Positions 2,911 through 14,663 of a stretch of 15,420 nt of DNA are shown here, piece by piece. This DNA is from a virus. Its lineage: Duplodnaviria > Heunggongvirae > Uroviricota > Caudoviricetes. Where the stretch lies: the IMG/VR virus record IMGVR_UViG_2547132271_000004, one strand, 5' to 3'. Made by a program: the position numbers and the translations under genes. The notes under the pieces were generated by a model. That model was not told the DNA's origin. It saw only the letters and a list, made by a program, of their open reading frames with translations, and did no database searches. Within the stretch, counting starts at the first letter, position 1. Each line of letters opens with the position of its first letter.

Positions 2911-3695
2911 GCCTGCACCTCCTGCGTCAGCTGCCAGAGCGCATCAAGGAAATGTGGGACGAAACTGCCCGGCCCTTTGCTTCTGATGACTGCGCGTTCT
3001 CCCGCTTGTTTCATCCAGTGACAGGCAGATGCGACATTTTTCAACTGATCGCCTGGTAATGCACAACAGGCAGCGACAACTGCCGATAATGCGCAGCCAG
3101 TTCCTACTACTCTGGTCATTAACAGGTCACCGCCATGAATGCCAACGGTGCGACAACCATCGGTAACATAATCCACGTCGCCAGTGACCACGACGATTGC
3201 GCCGGTTTCATTTGCCAGAGTTTGTGCGGCGGGCAACGCGTTGGCGGCGGCGTCAGTAGTATCTACACCACGACCACCATTGGCAATGCCTGCTAATGCC
3301 ATGATTTCCGAAGCATTACCGCGTATGGCGCTTGGTTTATGAGACAAGAGTTCCAGACAAAAACGGCGGCGATAATCGAGTGCACCAACCGCTACTGGAT
3401 CAAGCGTCCAGGGCGTTTGGGAGCGTTTTGCCTGTTCTATGGCGGCACGCATCGCCTGTGCGCGTGGCTGCGTCAATGTACCAACGTTAATCAGCAAGGC
3501 ACTGGCAATTGCCGCAAATTGACTGGCCTCTTCGGTTTCGATAACCATCGCTGGCGATGCGCCGAGCGCCAGTAAAGTATTGGCAGTAAAGGTTTGCACC
3601 ACATCATTGGTCATGCAATGCACAAGGGGGGAATATTGGTGAAAAAGGTGTAACACGGGCGCAGATTGCGCCGGACTCAGCAGGTCGACTTGCAT
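2907..3695 (-). CDS. thiM: Hydroxyethylthiazole kinase
   Basis: 262-aa ORF beginning [32 protein letters not shown], typical of ThiM. A Shine-Dalgarno AGGAG lies upstream on the minus strand. Confidence 0.9.
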
Positions 3696-3790
3696 AATTT
3701 GCTCCTGCCATAACGTGAAGAAGCAATGACCTGGCGGTCTGTGACTTCCCTACGCTGGCATTATCCAGATCAGGTGATACGGGTATTTCT
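3696..3790 (-). promoter_or_regulatory. thiM leader with the 3' portion of the TPP (thi-box) riboswitch and expression platform; the 5' half of the aptamer appears to be missing
   Basis: Minus-strand sequence AGAAAUACCCGUAUCACCUGAUCUGGAUAAUGCCAGCGUAGGGAAGUCAC followed by the SD and AUG matches the E. coli thiM thi-box as recalled. Upstream of it (plus 3791 onward) the sequence becomes AT-rich and unrelated to the expected P2/P3 and CUGAGA segment. Confidence 0.7.
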
Positions 3791-3856
3791 TACTAATTCC
3801 TGTTACTAGTTGATAATAAATAAGTTTTTAAGAATGCATAAATTAAAAACCTCAAA

Positions 3857-3880
3857 ACTGACCACACAACTGACCACACA
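3857..3880. repeat. Perfect tandem duplication of the 12-mer ACTGACCACACA
   Basis: Read directly: ACTGACCACACA at 3857-3868 and again at 3869-3880, immediately upstream of a CGAACAA-rich stretch. Confidence 0.9.
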
Positions 3881-4260
3881 TTTCGTTGAAGCTCTACGAA
3901 CAACGACGAACAATAACAAACAAAAGGGAAATTTGCTGGGGGTTTTGCGTAACCGTTATCATTTTCCGGCTATCCGTCATGAAGCTGGTGGATGATCTGC
4001 GTGGTGATTTCCACCATTCAGAGCAGGGGCGGTCATCATGACCATGCCATAACAAAAACCCCATATTCGTGGGTTTTCTGTGTTGTGGCTATTCTGCCGT
4101 TGCCGTGCTGGTGGATATTTCCGGTATGTGGCTCACCATATCGGCATCAGGCCCACCAGCGTGAAGCGTTTTTCATTTTTCGCGGGTATAAAAAATCGAT
4201 GGGGCTGGCAGTCCGGAAGACGTCAGGGTACAGAGATTTGACCCGCCCCTCCCTGTGCAT

Positions 4261-4468
4261 GAGCACAATAAGTAACCGAAGGCGGAATTCCGCCCTCGGT
4301 GCTCACATATGAGAAACGATATTTCTTACACCGATACCCTTTATTTGGGTATCGCGAGTAAGCCCCAAAATCTGGGTGTTACTCTTACTACCCAAACTAC
4401 GGGTAGTTTCATAGTCGAGTTGCAGATCTGCAACTCGCCACCAGTTGCTAAGTGCATTTTTGCACTTT
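4261..4468. other. Cluster of five consecutive, sequence-distinct stem-loops in non-coding DNA downstream of the packaging operon
   Basis: Inverted repeats read directly: CCGAAGGCGG/CCGCCCTCGG around a GAATTC centre (4277-4300); CGATACCC-N7-GGGTATCG (4332-4354); ACTACCC-N7-GGGTAGT (4387-4407); perfect palindrome CGAGTTGCAGATCTGCAACTCG (4416-4437); AAGTGCA-TTTTT-TGCACTT (4450-4468). Confidence 0.6.
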
Positions 4469-4484
4469 CGGTAATATCAACCAG

Positions 4485-4775
4485 TTACCGCCGTAAGTGC
4501 TCCGGCTTCCTCCACTGGTAAGTATTTTTCGCGCTCTCCCTCCGTTGTTGAGAACGGCGACGGTATGCCAGCAACTCAAGAACTCTGGTTCGTATGTTGC
4601 GCATATCCACGCCGTTAAGCTCAATACCGTCACGGCGCATTACCTCAGCCACCACACGCGCGTAATTTTCGGCTATCACGCTGTCCGGCTGTGTAGCCTG
4701 TTCGTCAGGCTGCTGACTGATTCCGGTAATGCGGCGAATTATTTTTAGTAGATCAGTTTCAGTCATTCTCGTCAT
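4485..4775 (-). CDS. Hypothetical small basic protein, translationally coupled to TerL
   Basis: 96-aa ORF whose ATG overlaps the TerL stop (ATGA). The C-terminus is Arg-rich. No family recognised. Confidence 0.5.
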   Translation of the reverse strand: MTRMTETDLLKIIRRITGISQQPDEQATQPDSVIAENYARVVAEVMRRDGIELNGVDMRNIRTRVLELLAYRRRSQQRRESAKNTYQWRKPEHLRR

Positions 4776-6433
4776 ACCCCATCAAATGCCGCAAGTCGCT
4801 CTTTCTGGCTGTCGCTCATATCAAATGCAAATTCCTCATGCTCAGCCTGGAATGTGCCAAACGCCATCAGCGCCGCAACGCTCGGGTCTATCTTATTGGA
4901 TGATTTTTTCTTGTTCGGCTTGATATTGGCGTTCGCGTCACTCTGCATCACAACATTACTCATTGACCAGGCCAGCACCGGATCACCACGATGAACAATC
5001 ACCTTCCGGTTAACAAAAACTTCGAACGATTTCGCCGCCGGACTAAAACGAAGGTACGTTTGCGGGAACGGCTCCACCTCAAATCCCGCTCCCTGTAGCT
5101 GCGTCCTCAGGTGCGTGGCGTTCCATGTATCGAAACCCACCAGCCTGATATTGAAATTCTCTGCATCCGCCATGATGTCATCACGGATACGGTCATAATC
5201 AATGCAGTCACCCGGTGTTGTGCGTATCCAGCCCGCCTTTGCCCACTGGCGATAGATGGCGCGGTTTTTATTGGCAGGGTTCTGTAGCTGAAATTCCGGT
5301 AGATAGTGACGTGAAACCAGCATAATCTTTTTACCGACCGGAAAGGCATAGCACACGCTGGAAATATCGCTGGTTGATGATAAGTCCAGCCCCGCATAGC
5401 ACTCCTGCCCGTATAAATCCGCCTCAGCGAACGTTCCGGCGCACTCCGCCCATGCACCGTTACCCATCCACGGCGTAGCCCCCTGACACCAGATATTGAA
5501 TCGCTTGGTGAGCATTTCCACCCACTGCGACGGAATACCCCGCGCTTTCTGGATGGTTGAGGCAAGTTTTTCACGATCGACGGAAACATCGATATTGGGA
5601 TTCGCCTTTATCCACATCGCCGGATCGTCAACCTCGCTTTCATCATCCAGCTCGTAAATCAGTACGAACATGGATTCGTTCACCTCTTCACCATCCAGTA
5701 TCTGGCAGCAATAGTCGTAGTGTTGTTTACAGGCTGAAACAACGTTGCTCCCCGATGTGGTGATGGCAAATAACAGCCCCTCCGGACGCGCCCCCATCCC
5801 CAGTTCAAGTGCGGAATAAACCCCGTTGTCTGGGTGCAGGTGATATTCATCCACAATGGCAAGACTCGGGTTTGTCCCCTCAATGGTTGCCGCTTTTGCT
5901 GCCAGTGGCTTTAACAGGCTGTTGGTTTTCGGGTGTATCACCTTGTGCGCCTGAATATTTACCCGCTTTCGTAACGGTCGGGATAAAAGGCACATCTGAC
6001 GCGCATCATCAAACACGATCCGCGCCTGATCACGACTCACGGCGGCGGTGTAAATATCCTGCTGCCCGTTTTCCATAACCAGAAACCAGTTAGCCAGGAT
6101 AGCGGCGACCGTGGATTTGGCATTTTTTCGCGGTACTTCAATGAATGCGCTGGTGTATTTGCGCCGTCCGGTGGCCTTAACCTTAAATCCCAGGATGCAG
6201 GCAAAGGCGAACTGCTGCCACGGCTCAAGTTCAATGGGGCTACCGCGCATTGCGCCTTTTACGTGCGGGCACACCCGGGAAAAGGCAATAAACCGCTCCA
6301 CGACCTCCGGATCGAACGTGTAAAGGGAGTTTTCAAGGTCAGAAAAATACCGTTTAACAGCCTGTTTCAGTCGTTTACAGGCCGTAATTTTGCCGTTTTT
6401 TACGCCTTCTGCGTACTCATGCCAGGCGGTCAA
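4772..6433 (-). CDS. terL: Terminase large subunit
   Basis: 553-aa ORF with an N-terminal ATPase region (Walker A-like VPRKNAKST) and a C-terminal nuclease-like region. It overlaps the TerS 3' end. Confidence 0.9.
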   Translation of the reverse strand: MTAWHEYAEGVKNGKITACKRLKQAVKRYFSDLENSLYTFDPEVVERFIAFSRVCPHVKGAMRGSPIELEPWQQFAFACILGFKVKATGRRKYTSAFIEVPRKNAKSTVAAILANWFLVMENGQQDIYTAAVSRDQARIVFDDARQMCLLSRPLRKRVNIQAHKVIHPKTNSLLKPLAAKAATIEGTNPSLAIVDEYHLHPDNGVYSALELGMGARPEGLLFAITTSGSNVVSACKQHYDYCCQILDGEEVNESMFVLIYELDDESEVDDPAMWIKANPNIDVSVDREKLASTIQKARGIPSQWVEMLTKRFNIWCQGATPWMGNGAWAECAGTFAEADLYGQECYAGLDLSSTSDISSVCYAFPVGKKIMLVSRHYLPEFQLQNPANKNRAIYRQWAKAGWIRTTPGDCIDYDRIRDDIMADAENFNIRLVGFDTWNATHLRTQLQGAGFEVEPFPQTYLRFSPAAKSFEVFVNRKVIVHRGDPVLAWSMSNVVMQSDANANIKPNKKKSSNKIDPSVAALMAFGTFQAEHEEFAFDMSDSQKERLAAFDGV

Positions 6434-6773: not shown

Positions 6774-7061
6774 GTTCTTTTTTCGCCCAATTATTTTCAA
6801 AAAAATTACCGTGCACAAAAATTTGAGGGGGCGGTCGGTGTCCGGCAGGGACGGTTTCGTCCTGAAAACCACCCCCACCCCCTCTGACGGCCTCACCAGC
6901 GATTGCGAAAACATTCCATGACCTCGCGGTCACGGTCGGTTAATCGCTTCGCTGTGGTGCGTTTTGTGCGCCCTGTCCTGTTGGCTTTGTGCTCTGTCTC
7001 CTGTGTCTTCCATGTGTCACGCTGCCTTATCAGTCCACGTATCAGCCTGGTTTGCTCCTGT
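6774..7061. other. Candidate cos / packaging recognition region between HNH and terS
   Basis: 288-bp gap in the position where HK97-like phages carry cos. Contains a nested imperfect palindrome (GAGGGGGCGG ... CCACCCCCTC enclosing GGACG-GTTT-CGTCC, about 6825-6884) and a T/G-skewed tract with recurring CTGTC and TGTGTC motifs (about 6956-7030). Confidence 0.4.
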
Positions 7062-7502
7062 TCAGTCATCATCGCCATACATCCAGTCGTTACGGTGTGC
7101 CGCCCGTTCTTCCTGCTCGCGATACATGCCCGCTTTACGGTTTGCTTTCGTGGCTGGATCTTCCCGTGTCGTCTTACGGTTGTGGCACGTCTGGCACAAT
7201 GCCTGGTGATTCCACTCAGGCCAGAAGAGAACATCACCGCCGCCATTGATGGGAATGATGTGATCCACCACAAGAGCTGGCGTATAAATCCCCTTAGCCA
7301 GACAACGCACGCATAACGGGTTTTTGCTCAGGTACAGGGCGCGGTATTTGTCCCACTGTCGGGAATACCCGCGCGCGCGGCGGTGTCCCCGTCTGGCATC
7401 CTCTGCACGCCATGCAGCCCGCCTGTGCTCTTCACACTTGCCGGACTTCACGCGCTTATTACAGCCAGGCTCAGTGCATCGCCTTAATGGTTGCCACGGC
7501 AT
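7062..7502 (-). CDS. HNH endonuclease (packaging-associated)
   Basis: 146-aa ORF with Cys-rich zinc-binding motifs and the HNH core (CTEPGC, CVRC, DHIIP, HQALCQTCHNRK). Its ATG overlaps the connector stop. Confidence 0.9.
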   Translation of the reverse strand: MPWQPLRRCTEPGCNKRVKSGKCEEHRRAAWRAEDARRGHRRARGYSRQWDKYRALYLSKNPLCVRCLAKGIYTPALVVDHIIPINGGGDVLFWPEWNHQALCQTCHNRKTTREDPATKANRKAGMYREQEERAAHRNDWMYGDDD

Positions 7503-12558: not shown

Positions 12559-12603
12559 AGGCTTTATCTCACAGCAGTAAATTAAAATTTTTGCGTTTTA
12601 ACC

Positions 12604-12832
12604 CTTCACCTGTTCACCTTTTGATATTTTCCATTTAAATTCATACTGTTAAGGGGTGAACAGTTTCACAAAAACTATTCACCAACTGTTCACCACTGTT
12701 CACCCTTGAAGCTCAATAAACAACCAAAAAGGTGAACAGTGAATAGTTTGGTGAACAGTTCATAAATAACTGTTCACCCTATAATATACTGATATAAAAG
12801 ATAATTATGACAGGGTGAACAGTGGTGAACAG
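12604..12832. repeat. Iteron-type replication origin: about nine copies of GGTGAACAG in both orientations flanking an AT-rich segment
   Basis: GGTGAACAG or its complement CTGTTCACC read at about 12611, 12655, 12686, 12696, 12731, 12750, 12770, 12814 and 12824. AT-rich spacer ATAATATACTGATATAAAAGATAATTATGA at 12781-12812. It sits immediately 3' of the primase-helicase gene. Confidence 0.7.
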
Positions 12833-12845
12833 TTATTCAATAAGT

Positions 12846-14663
12846 TTAATTTTTGCTATCGTCATTAGTGACCGATACACATGATGGCATCCAGTCTTCT
12901 GATTCCTCCGTCAGTGTCACGTTTGAACGAAAACCGTGCTTCGTTTTCCGTTTCATATACTCCCTGCCATATTCCGCCATTGCCCCCGGCATATCTTTAC
13001 CGAAGCGCGTCAGTGTTACAGGTTTACCAAACCCATGTGCCCTCATATAAGCCAGATAGGCATGATAGAGATACCTGCGTGGGCTGAATGGCACAATTTC
13101 AGCATTACCCACTAACAGGCCATCACACATTACCGACGCCATGAGATAGCCGCAGAAGTCCACCAGCGAATCCCCCTCTCGCTTTATCGCCAGTGCTTCT
13201 TCAGATTTCTGCTGCTCATATAACAGGCGTCTGGCTTCGTCCTGGTCAGCAAACCGTGTAAGCAGATGGCGAATCACTACCGCCAGCTCACCTTCTATTT
13301 TTTCCGCCAGCATTGGATCGCGTTCGTTCTCCGGTACAACTTCCGAAAAATTGAATATCACCCGACGACGTGAGATCCCCCCGCTGCGGTCACTGAATGA
13401 CATGGCGTTATTGTTAACCGCCAGCACTACTGCCGGAATACGCGTTGAGTAGGGGGCTTTGTGTTTCGGGTCAATTGCCACCTTGTCACCGCCTGTAATA
13501 GCCTTAATCCCTGCCCCATCACCAGCGTAGCGGGTCATATCCGGCATGATAATCAGCGAAAAGCCAACCACTAACGCGCGTTCCCTTGCATCTTCCAGCG
13601 CCTTCATGCTTGCCGATACTGTGTTGGCCTTACCCGCCAGCATGGTGCAAATCTCCGCCATCACGCTTTTACCACTTCCCCCTGGACCTGTTACCTCAAT
13701 GAATAACTGCCAGTCGTACCGGTTCGCCAGCACCATGAATAATGCAGCCAGTACGCGATCCGCCTTGCGGTCATTCTCAGCCACCGAACGGCGTAACCAC
13801 TTCCAGAAATTCGGCGCATGTGTTGCCAGCGTTTCCCCCTCTGCTGGTGGGCTGAAAGGTAATTCACTGGCAATTAACAACCAGTCGTTTTTGTTATGCT
13901 CCCGAAAATTACCTGTTCTGGTATCAAATACCCCGTTACTGAATCCAATCAGGTTACGGGCTGTATTCCCCATTACAGGCAAACTTAACTTCATGGTATC
14001 GACCGCCGATTTAATGGCGTTCTGCGAATAGCTGATCTCCGCATCAATGAAAATCTGTGCCATAGCTCGCTGTAATTCTTTATCCTGTACTGGCTCCCAT
14101 ACAACGCCGTTGTAATGGTGAACAGTGTCAGAGTCAGCATGAATCGCCAGTTCACCGCCATAATGTGCCAGGAGAACTTCGCCGCGTTGACTTGCTCCCA
14201 TCTGGTTAAGCGCCAGTGATGAAGCGTTATCGTCTTTTACCCGCTCTTTTTTCTTTACAGGCAGTTCAACTACCTTTTTCTTTTCCGCCTGCTCTGCCCG
14301 TTCACGTTCCAGATATTCGCGCCAGTTCTCCCGTTTCTGGCTGTGCATTCCTTCAGGGTAATAATCAGCATCCCTGACACCTGCCACTGCCAGTTTCTGC
14401 CCGATGGTATTAACAAGCCCCGGACGCAATAACCCCGCCTGATAGAGACGCACGCGATAGCGTCCGTCCGGTACGATTTGCAGGTTGTCCAGTTCGGCAA
14501 GTTGTTGCTCTCCAAGCCAGACAGGTGGCACGTTATCGCCAGCCAGTCGCCCGTCCTGTTCCTGCCACTGTTTCGCATGTGCCCACGCATCACTACCCGC
14601 AAAAATGATGACTTCCGTCATTTTGTCACGCGGCTGGTGTTTTAAATTTGGCGCTTTTTTCAT
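12846..14663 (-). CDS. Primase-helicase / replication initiator (P4-alpha / D5-type C-terminal P-loop NTPase)
   Basis: About 605 aa from MKKAPNLK (ATGA overlap with the upstream gene; RBS GGAGAG). Walker A VTGPGGSGKS and Walker B-like LIIMPDM, with a D5_N/primase-C-like central region. Confidence 0.85.
   Translation of the reverse strand: MKKAPNLKHQPRDKMTEVIIFAGSDAWAHAKQWQEQDGRLAGDNVPPVWLGEQQLAELDNLQIVPDGRYRVRLYQAGLLRPGLVNTIGQKLAVAGVRDADYYPEGMHSQKRENWREYLERERAEQAEKKKVVELPVKKKERVKDDNASSLALNQMGASQRGEVLLAHYGGELAIHADSDTVHHYNGVVWEPVQDKELQRAMAQIFIDAEISYSQNAIKSAVDTMKLSLPVMGNTARNLIGFSNGVFDTRTGNFREHNKNDWLLIASELPFSPPAEGETLATHAPNFWKWLRRSVAENDRKADRVLAALFMVLANRYDWQLFIEVTGPGGSGKSVMAEICTMLAGKANTVSASMKALEDARERALVVGFSLIIMPDMTRYAGDGAGIKAITGGDKVAIDPKHKAPYSTRIPAVVLAVNNNAMSFSDRSGGISRRRVIFNFSEVVPENERDPMLAEKIEGELAVVIRHLLTRFADQDEARRLLYEQQKSEEALAIKREGDSLVDFCGYLMASVMCDGLLVGNAEIVPFSPRRYLYHAYLAYMRAHGFGKPVTLTRFGKDMPGAMAEYGREYMKRKTKHGFRSNVTLTEESEDWMPSCVSVTNDDSKN

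Follow-up and report, generated by a model that had tools for sequence, protein, structure and literature searches.

What function could be served by a dense string of hairpins in non-coding DNA at the end of a phage satellite? The question is raised by the window analyzed here, a stretch of 15,420 nt (IMG/VR record IMGVR_UViG_2547132271_000004; Caudoviricetes) in which enterobacterial chromosome (yegX, thiD, thiM) is followed by a satellite island. The hairpin array occupies positions 4261-4468, in the island arm between thiM and ORF96, an open reading frame (ORF) for a 96-residue protein (4485-4775, minus strand) that is the last gene of the packaging operon. A reading made from the sequence alone (the sequence-only reading) had proposed that the arm might insulate thiM from read-through, form a structured 3' untranslated region (UTR) or small RNA, or hold protein-binding or recombination sites. 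As judged from sequence comparisons, the protein-binding option appears to fit the evidence best. Our own view, which is a tentative one, is that the array may be a conserved, non-coding, cis-acting module by which enterobacterial phage satellites interact with their helper phages.

When the region was folded on both strands, all five hairpins described in the sequence-only reading were recovered, but the total rose to seven consecutive stem-loops within 4260-4467 (hp1, hp1b, hp2, a centre hairpin, hp3, hp4 and hp5), hp1b and the centre hairpin being the additions. The 231-nt stretch that holds them had a folding z score of -9.36 as RNA, on either strand, and of -8.6 as DNA, and none of 200 dinucleotide shuffles was as stable, so the hairpins are not random. 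Hairpin hp1 (4260-4305) comprises an inner palindrome (4275-4300), whose 13-nt arms have one A.C mismatch on the plus strand, and an outer stem (4260-4266/4299-4305), the pairs of which have decayed in three related satellites (L083, L210 and L214). It is followed by hp1b (4310-4328), a short A/T-rich stem-loop. The next three, hp2 (4332-4354; CGATACCC-N7-GGGTATCG), the centre hairpin (4356-4384; GAGTAA/TTACTC around CCCA-N5-TGGG) and hp3 (4387-4407; ACTACCC-N7-GGGTAGT), contain as dyads 1, 2 and 3 the common dyad CCC-N7-GGGT, centered at 4343, 4370 and 4397, i.e., at an exact 27-bp spacing. The half-sites are common to all three and the 7-nt spacers are variable. There are eight matches to this dyad in the window, against 1.4 expected, and five of them are in the array. 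An origin of the three dyads as a tandem repeat was rejected, with Tandem Repeats Finder detecting nothing. Finally, hp4 (4416-4437) is a perfect 22-bp palindrome, CGAGTTGCAGATCTGCAACTCG, with GATC at its center, and hp5 (4450-4467, minus strand) is a stem-loop 17 nt past the ORF96 stop codon. Beside hp5, and beginning at that stop codon, lies a conserved box (4473-4487, minus strand), TAACTGGTTGATATT, written TAACNNGNTGATATT when taken together with the hp5 unit; its plus-strand reading, TATCAACCAGTTA, fits the consensus WATCARNNNNTTR of integration host factor (IHF). The earlier statement that the hairpins have different sequences, and are thus not a repeat family, does not hold for the three dyads or for hp5, which belongs to a family of units described below, and stands for the remaining hairpins. 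At hp3 (window positions 4400-4403) a 9-bp unit is missing from the window and its closest relatives and present in most relatives, where it creates both a direct repeat (GAAACTAC-G-GAAACTAC) and, overlapping hp3, an alternative hairpin of 9 bp (AAACTACGG/CCGTAGTTT).

Five of these palindromes have counterparts in a single phage gene. A search of metagenome and viral contigs with the hp4 palindrome yielded about 140 loci in large phage contigs, where the palindrome lies inside a gene, in the order rusA, kilA-N, Q, that encodes a KilA-N-domain protein (Pfam KilA-N). Its position within KilA-N coding sequence ruled out a chance match or a terminator in these contigs. When the 231-nt array was compared by BLAST (E ≤ 10) with 50,697 phage records, 40 were matched, and in 33 of the 40 the match lay in a gene of one KilA-N family or in the place that this gene occupies. 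Matches to hp4 were found in SfII, Stx2a phages, 2H10, Kati and YeP1, those to hp1 in SfV, ST64B, F1055, Adana and Stx2c phages, and one to hp3 in mEp460. The KilA-N gene has a variable segment (codons ~31-75) with at least four alleles among 46 distinct segments, each having its own palindrome at one place; the allele-specific palindromes lie at codons ~51-77. In SfII, SfV, mEp460 and YeP1 (L452-L455) the palindrome of each allele is perfect or near-perfect, the coding DNA itself being the palindrome, and recombinant alleles also exist (L510).

The identities were assessed with 500 shuffles, of which each of the five hairpins beat at least 498; for four of the five no shuffle was equal. Against allele B (SfV, ST64B and Stx2c phages), hp1 was identical at 21/22 positions (p ≤ 0.002), and hp4 at 22/23 against allele A (SfII, Stx2a phages, 2H10, Kati and YeP1; p ≤ 0.002). 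The remaining three aligned with allele D (mEp460): hp2 with its first dyad (20/25; p ≤ 0.004), the centre hairpin through an identical 16/16 run, CCCAAAATCTGGGTGT (p ≤ 0.004), and hp3 with the second dyad (25/28 including flanking bases; p ≤ 0.002). The centre hairpin also resembles the palindrome of allele C, CAACACCCAgaattTGGGTGTTG. In the same test, hp1b and hp5 gave no alignment to the KilA-N gene. The satellite pieces all run in the KilA-N sense orientation, and as they are in three different frames separated by stops they are not coding and do not form a gene. The satellite palindromes of hp1 and hp4 are as good as, or better than, the phage versions. In SfV allele B an IHF consensus, AATCAACCAGTTA, which resembles the conserved box of the window, lies 10 nt past the palindrome. 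By analogy with the operator discussed next, we infer that in both the phage gene and the satellite the palindromes are recognition sites of KilA-N proteins.

Phage HK022 has, in its roi gene (L456:4656-5381), a palindrome, CCTGCATTGCAG (CTGCAtTGCAG; roi nt ~126-138), followed by an IHF consensus, at a place equivalent to that of the KilA-N palindromes. The HK022 Roi protein is reported to bind inside roi itself, at a site next to one for IHF. The two marks of a Roi-type operator, a dyad at the homologous place of a regulator gene and an IHF consensus nearby, are thus found here at the level of sequence. Other satellites point to further regulators. The arm of one of them (L059) matches a palindrome that Rha/Roi/Ant-family genes carry in their 5' portion, namely those of SSU5 (E = 6e-8), ES2, PAN70 ('Roi') and APSE ('Roi'), and that of another (L058) matches Fels-1 (E = 1e-6) and the Rha or antirepressor genes of SPN3UB-like phages, so that the link between palindromes and regulator genes appears to generalize beyond KilA-N. 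Rha/Roi/Ant-family genes of very different phages have an allele-specific palindrome at one place after the N-terminal DNA-binding domain, e.g., CTTTTCCACCAaTGGTGGAAAAG in SSU5 (L537) and CCTGCAaTGCAGG in PAN70 (L538). Both the KilA-N domain and the N-terminal domain of Rha belong to the DNA-binding modules that make up the 'Bro network' (PMC10111431). It is conceivable, and we put it forward with low confidence, that satellite arms carry multi-allelic operator mimics, with one site per allele class of a Bro-network regulator (KilA-N, Rha/Roi/Ant) of the helper.

The hairpins are conserved in homologous islands, in line with what the sequence-only reading would require. The array is present, at least in part, in 664 of 5,426 complete E. 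coli genomes (~12%), with at least 80% of it in 423, and it also occurs in Salmonella; among the matches listed, nearly all are unannotated. The sequences are closely related, and the conservation counts that follow are not independent. The hairpins fall into two classes, i.e., hp5 and a core made up of hp2, the centre hairpin, hp3 and hp4. Across 53 distinct loci the core (4329-4439) had a median identity to the window of 97.3%, as against 75.3% at third codon positions, and ~89% at positions 1+2, of the adjacent ORF96. Where the core does vary, the change mostly affects one side of a stem and seldom has a compensating partner. One base pair of hp2 has undergone a double change from C-G to T-A, and the seven inner pairs of hp4 are invariant in 38 distinct arrays; the 3' base of its eighth pair varies (G, A or C), and its outermost pair is gapped or unpaired in 31 of the 38. 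Such a pattern would be expected if selection acts on the sequence itself or if the module has spread very recently, and it speaks against hairpins that only stabilize. As the core sequence is nearly invariant, sequence-specific recognition is favored over structure alone.

The behavior of hp5 is of another kind. Together with the conserved box it forms a repeated 'box + hairpin' unit family, sometimes present in several tandem copies in related arms, in which the stem sequence differs between loci and pairing is always kept. There are double-sided changes in four of its seven pairs. RNAalifold gave no consensus on the hp5 units, which show register shifts, and a shuffle test was run instead: there were at least nine stem classes among 28 distinct units, each unlikely in shuffles. 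Its G.U pairs lean to the sense strand (16 vs 3), as do the non-Watson-Crick cells of all hairpins together (63 vs 36). Because its stem changes in sequence while pairing is kept, we read hp5 as a structural hairpin, probably a separate element acting in mRNA. In the covariation test of conserved pairing that had been suggested, hp5 alone showed support (4/7 pairs), the core hairpins being too nearly invariant to be informative.

The island itself is a satellite of the capsid-forming phage-inducible chromosomal island (cf-PICI) type. Its minus-strand genes encode a major capsid protein, protease, portal, connector, HNH protein, P27-family small terminase, large terminase and the 96-aa protein, and a P4-like primase is encoded farther along; the gene set and order are those of cf-PICIs of Proteobacteria (bioRxiv 10.1101/2022.09.08.507074). 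To judge by sequence, a cos of its own is accompanied in the island by a second, helper-type one. This copy, cos2 (4171-4253, minus strand), adjoins the array 7 bp from hp1. It is an 83-bp phage-type cos core, and aligning the right and left ends of SfV on the window placed the cut at ~4201-4218. Its identity is 92%-95% both with the physical ends of SfV, SfIV and SfI and with sequence near the termini of SfII and ST64B; with a stretch of phage P27 that bears an annotated 10-nt cos-site, it is 82%. The features that define a P27/HK97-type (HNH-dependent) cos, i.e., homology to mapped termini and the order of G-box, cut and C-box/T-run, are all found in 4171-4253. In about 100 viral contigs exactly these 83-bp core boundaries are common and nothing beyond them, homology stopping at 4253; in these phages the core lies between the HNH gene, the end of which directly abuts it, and terS. 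The array (4261-4468) is absent from these phages with a matching cos core (~100 contigs). Both the core and a palindrome are common to the arm and to SfII, SfV, ST64B, F1055 and Adana.

The island's own canonical site, cos1 (about 6775-6890, minus strand), lies between its HNH and terS genes and has the G-box, C-box and T-run layout of the P27/SfV cos. The ends of a packaged 16.5-kb cf-PICI record, LR881103, map to the place of cos1, and that element is without ORF96 and without the arm. Protein identities between the island and SfV are 36% for TerS, 30% for TerL and 37% for HNH. EcCICFT073 is a published case of an island with two cos sites (PMC6092414); in the literature examined we found neither a report of two cos sites nor a mapping of cos for cf-PICIs. 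No lambda or P2 cosN was found in related arms, and the arms of L041-type satellites gave no match to phages.

Is the arm perhaps host DNA? When positions 3650-4520 were compared with the 5,426 E. coli genomes, ~5,400 matched the first 141 bases of the query only, and the whole arm was present in 49. Homology to the host thus stops at ~3790, and 3791-4484 is therefore island DNA; the possibility, raised in the sequence-only reading, that the region belongs to the host backbone was not borne out. The junction (~3790-3792) lies within the thiamine pyrophosphate (TPP) riboswitch of thiM (3729-3811, minus strand), into which the island has inserted. Island DNA replaces the P2/P3 (5') part of the riboswitch and the side of its native promoter, which makes the question of insulating thiM a different one from that posed in the sequence-only reading. 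The TPP aptamer scores 37.5 bits at the junction, against a gathering score of 54.3; the score in a strain lacking the island is 71.2 bits. An identical thiM riboswitch junction is present in a Salmonella satellite (L217).

Wherever upstream sequence existed, the upstream neighbor of the array was ORF96. Among 99 metagenome or viral loci with BLAST matches, ORF96 was upstream in 81, and the others include 14 with the cos core alone. A search for ORF96 in species-representative genomes had returned 0 and then 1 locus, and viral and metagenome contigs were used instead. The protein belongs to phrog_1561 (929 protein clusters at 90% identity), a family with no assigned function that is widespread in satellites. 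Its AlphaFold2 (AF2) model (pLDDT 72) has three helices and an arginine-rich C-terminus, and had no Foldseek match at E ≤ 0.001 in PDB. With no PDB sequence match and no fold match, we discarded the idea that ORF96 is an Rpp or a TerS-like specificity factor. The array-bearing satellites differ in their late genes: some are cf-PICIs, some have terS, capsid and decoration genes, some a ClpP-capsid fusion, and some only DUF1441, a neighbor of ORF96 that gave no PDB match either.

The arms are mosaic, with modules shuffled and duplicated. The core (4329-4439) is found without a P27-type cos in many satellites, and duplicated in some loci, and a Salmonella cf-PICI (L218) has the array but no cos2 behind it. 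It is thus with the late-operon end that the array is associated, and cos can do without it. In L010 (3460-3650), L016 and L120 the hairpin module is duplicated around an origin-like block consisting of three TGCGGGTTA repeats, an AT-rich stretch and three inverted TAACCCGC repeats, and the second copy in L010 is interrupted by an insertion sequence (IS) element. Four satellites with a matching arm (L002, L210, L214 and L083) are located within prophage genes for portal or large terminase (gpA) that are truncated; helper-embedded PICIs (HE-PICIs) of this kind have been described (PMC10111431).

Conventional roles for a hairpin-rich region were examined next to these findings. A terminator scan of 3650-4800 returned only hp1 (minus strand) and 4060-4073 (plus strand), i.e., two sites against 1.3 expected from shuffles. 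Passing this loose scan with an 11-bp stem and an interrupted tail, TACTTATTGT, minus-strand hp1 is a partial exception to the remark that the hairpins have no canonical U-tract; the remark is correct for hp2-hp5, which have no T-run. GC-rich stem-loops followed by a U run, as expected of intrinsic terminators, are not what the array shows, and the view that these are not simple intrinsic terminators was sustained. The candidate promoter that had been pointed out, TTGCTG-N18-TATCAT, was not detected by a promoter scan, and the proposed plus-strand small RNA, having neither a promoter by scan nor an Rfam match, was not upheld. Searched with Rfam 15 (including C4, isrK and TPP), the window contained no family at the gathering threshold; at E ≤ 1, positions 3500-4800 gave only a truncated TPP match and a chance small nucleolar RNA (snoRNA) match, and the L057 arm, a related one, had no Rfam match. 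Neither Pfam nor PHROG matched the ORFs of the plus strand (3992-4312 and 4309-4521). Among relatives there is a 2-nt length change, i.e., a frameshift, near hp5, and stops occur in all three sense-strand frames of the array; with no family match, these features ruled out a protein-coding array on either strand. A replication origin was ruled out as well: P4-type TGTTCACC iterons number 0 in 3791-4484 and are clustered at 12600-12850.

How, then, might the array act? From the observed structure, conservation, identity with the phage gene and adjacency to cos, we infer a role for protein binding along the following lines. The module follows the last gene of the late (packaging) operon and in many islands directly adjoins a copy of a helper-type cos. 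Five of its palindromes (hp1, hp2, centre, hp3 and hp4) are near-copies of the allele-specific palindromes of KilA-N genes just upstream of Q in lambdoid phages (SfV, SfII, ST64B and mEp460 types), and, with sites of several allele classes strung together, it could bind the regulator of whichever helper is present. Such binding might serve in sensing, in titration or as architectural help, and the IHF-consensus box beside hp5 may assist.

Several points weigh against this mechanism. Binding to the palindromes is a prediction, and SfV, SfII, ST64B and mEp460-type phages are candidate helpers of the island, both on the strength of sequence comparison. The individual matches are short (16-28 nt), and HK022 Roi is not homologous to KilA-N proteins. 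The phage palindromes lie in coding DNA, so that conservation of the peptide may contribute. Loci fetched by an exact hp4 match bias the conservation count for allele A; in an unbiased sample (n = 10), 0 of 13 variable sites fell in the palindrome against 2.3 expected, an invariance that is only suggestive (P = 0.08). Part of the core identity could stem from recent recombinational spread of the module, and its constant neighbor, ORF96, is without an assigned role. Finally, perfect palindromes fold equally well as RNA, regulatory RNAs are known inside Bro-network genes (PMC10111431), and an RNA mechanism fits most of the data.

In such an RNA mechanism, the late-operon transcript would have the array as its 3' UTR, and the hairpins of the array would pair, through kissing loops or duplexes, with the identical self-complementary ones in the helper KilA-N mRNA or, in a variant, would be targeted by a phage or satellite immunity RNA that controls a Bro-network gene, as with P4 CI/seqA and P1 c4/ant. 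The identities with the phage gene support this equally, the array directly follows the last gene on the transcribed strand, the lean of G.U to the sense strand (63 vs 36) points the same way, the hp4 loop GAUC is self-complementary, and P4, PICIs and HE-PICIs have Bro-network genes with regulatory RNAs inside them (PMC10111431). We regard it as a serious rival, though a less likely one: there is no C4, isrK or other Rfam family in the window or the related arm, and neither a promoter nor a defined 3' end is evident; most of the G.U bias is due to hp5 and hp1, in counts that are phylogenetically non-independent; and stable intramolecular hairpins disfavor pairing between molecules. We would give a similarly small chance to an ordinary operon end, at which the hairpins would protect or terminate the 3' end of the late mRNA, limiting read-through into cos, attR and thiMD, and the likeness to phage genes would be historical. 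That the array begins at the stop codon of the last gene, that hp5 keeps its pairing with a variable stem, that hp1 passes the terminator scan on the operon strand, and that the L218 array without cos2 ties the array to the operon end are all consistent with this, and a plain operon-end function is possible, especially for hp5 and hp1. However, no hairpin has a true U-tract, seven hairpins exceed the need, the conservation of the core, including loops and linkers, is far above that of ORF96 synonymous sites, unlike that of typical terminators, and five independent matches to one phage gene would go unexplained.

That the array is recombination debris, i.e., a decaying mosaic of KilA-N/Bro gene fragments acquired from helpers and having no present function, strikes us as rather improbable. 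The pieces do lie in KilA-N sense orientation, in three frames with stops, in arms that are highly mosaic with shuffled and duplicated modules, and Bro-network genes are known to swap domains (PMC10111431). Yet only the palindromic cores survive, with little flanking homology, and the satellite palindromes equal or better the phage ones (hp1 and hp4); a neutral origin is also hard to square with a core at 97% against 75% for synonymous sites over 53 loci in two genera. A part in cos function, in which the palindromes would be terminase or specificity-factor sites like cosB or cosQ that adapt a phage-type cos to the satellite, seems most improbable to us, in spite of the 7-bp distance between array and cos core, the nearby IHF consensus and Chi sites, and the known recognition of PICI-specific cosB regions by Rpp-TerS (PMC6739421). 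Phages with the matching core do without the array, HNH and terS directly abutting the core; the core module occurs in many satellites lacking a cos2-type cos, and L218 has the array without cos2; the array is on the last-packaged side and not on the terS side; and ORF96 is no Rpp homologue by sequence. We give hardly any credence to a plus-strand small RNA from TTGCTG-N18-TATCAT or to a replication origin, for which the density of hairpins and the candidate promoter of the sequence-only reading speak and nothing else does: the promoter fails the scan, there is no Rfam match, the plus-strand ORFs and frames are not conserved, and the TGTTCACC iterons are at 12600-12850, with none in the arm.

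Several known systems resemble the proposed helper-interface module in part. As with the HK022 Roi operator, there is a palindrome at a fixed 5' place in a Bro-network gene followed by an IHF consensus (HK022 roi and SfV allele B), the regulator gene lies between replication/nin genes and Q, and the satellite arm also has KilA-N-type palindromes and an IHF-consensus box. Unlike it, the satellite sites are outside genes and concatenated from several alleles, and the island has no gene for a cognate protein. Like satellites that use the cos of their helper (P4, cos-type Staphylococcus aureus pathogenicity islands [cos-SaPIs] and EcCICFT073), the arm carries a near-identical helper-type cos, and two cos sites have a precedent; the present island, however, belongs to the capsid-forming PICIs and has a terminase, an HNH protein and a cos of its own, and the hairpin array occurs in no described cos. 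The immunity RNAs (P4 CI/seqA/seqC; P1 c4/ant; Rfam C4 and isrK) are likewise short structured elements in KilA/Ant/Bro-type genes, on which they act in cis or in trans (PMC10111431), but the array consists of simple perfect palindromes in a late-operon 3' region, not in the Bro zone, and does not match C4 or isrK. Repetitive extragenic palindromic elements and bacterial interspersed mosaic elements (REP/BIME, including the RIP/RIB types) also consist of stable palindromes that follow one another in 3' untranslated DNA and have an IHF consensus in between, whereas the array is confined to satellite arms, its units have counterparts in phage genes, and its sequences appear unrelated, a judgment made without formal comparison to the REP consensus. 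With Rho-independent terminators it has in common GC-rich stem-loops after the last gene and a terminator-like hp1 on the operon strand; the other hairpins of the array lack a U-tract, and its conservation is far above what a terminator needs.

The rest of the arm (3791-4170) contains Chi sites, a terminator-like hairpin and att-proximal repeats, and its segments 3843-3997 and 3981-4160 are also found in other satellites. The hairpin, AAAACCC-N9-GGGTTTT (4055-4077), which the sequence-only reading had also listed, was confirmed and is terminator-like in both directions; the att-proximal direct repeats are at 3849-3925. Chi sites in the arm are at 3984-3991 (plus), 4107-4114 (plus) and 4153-4160 (minus). 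In the whole 15.4 kb there are 15 occurrences of Chi (GCTGGTGG), where shuffles would predict 0.5, and three of them are no more than 230 bp away from cos2. A Chi-like octamer, ACTGGTGG (4438-4445, minus strand), lies between hp4 and hp5 on the ORF96-sense strand; in most relatives it is a perfect Chi (GCTGGTGG), oriented such that it meets RecBCD coming from the right end of cos2. Directly 3' of the primase gene, at 12600-12850, the P4 type I iteron TGTTCACC is present at least 11 times, some copies being inverted relative to the others, and this cluster is the probable replication origin of the island. A small ORF (~60 aa; 6893-7078, minus strand), annotated in the matching RefSeq genome, fills most of the interval between HNH and terS, and a comparable small ORF lies before the record end in packaged LR881103.

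How Gram-negative PICIs and cf-PICIs recognize and exploit their helpers is only partly understood, and the present locus offers several leads: a conserved non-coding module, carried by ~12% of E. coli genomes, that is linked by sequence to a regulator gene of candidate helpers; a cf-PICI that keeps a helper-type cos besides its own; and allele-specific palindromes within phage Bro-network genes. The array and its match to the phage gene suggest an undescribed interaction between satellite and helper, and the module would be a useful marker for satellite annotation. Should the palindromes be sites of the regulators, they would provide a handle on helper range, on the induction of satellites or their interference with phages, and on the KilA-N/Roi/Ant proteins themselves, of which little is understood. 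If satellite arms do mimic the operators of several alleles, the variable segment of the phage regulator and the DNA encoding it would make up a self-matching pair of protein and site, and a single satellite would be able to detect or titrate the regulators of many helpers, just as the adjacent cos copy would exploit their terminases.

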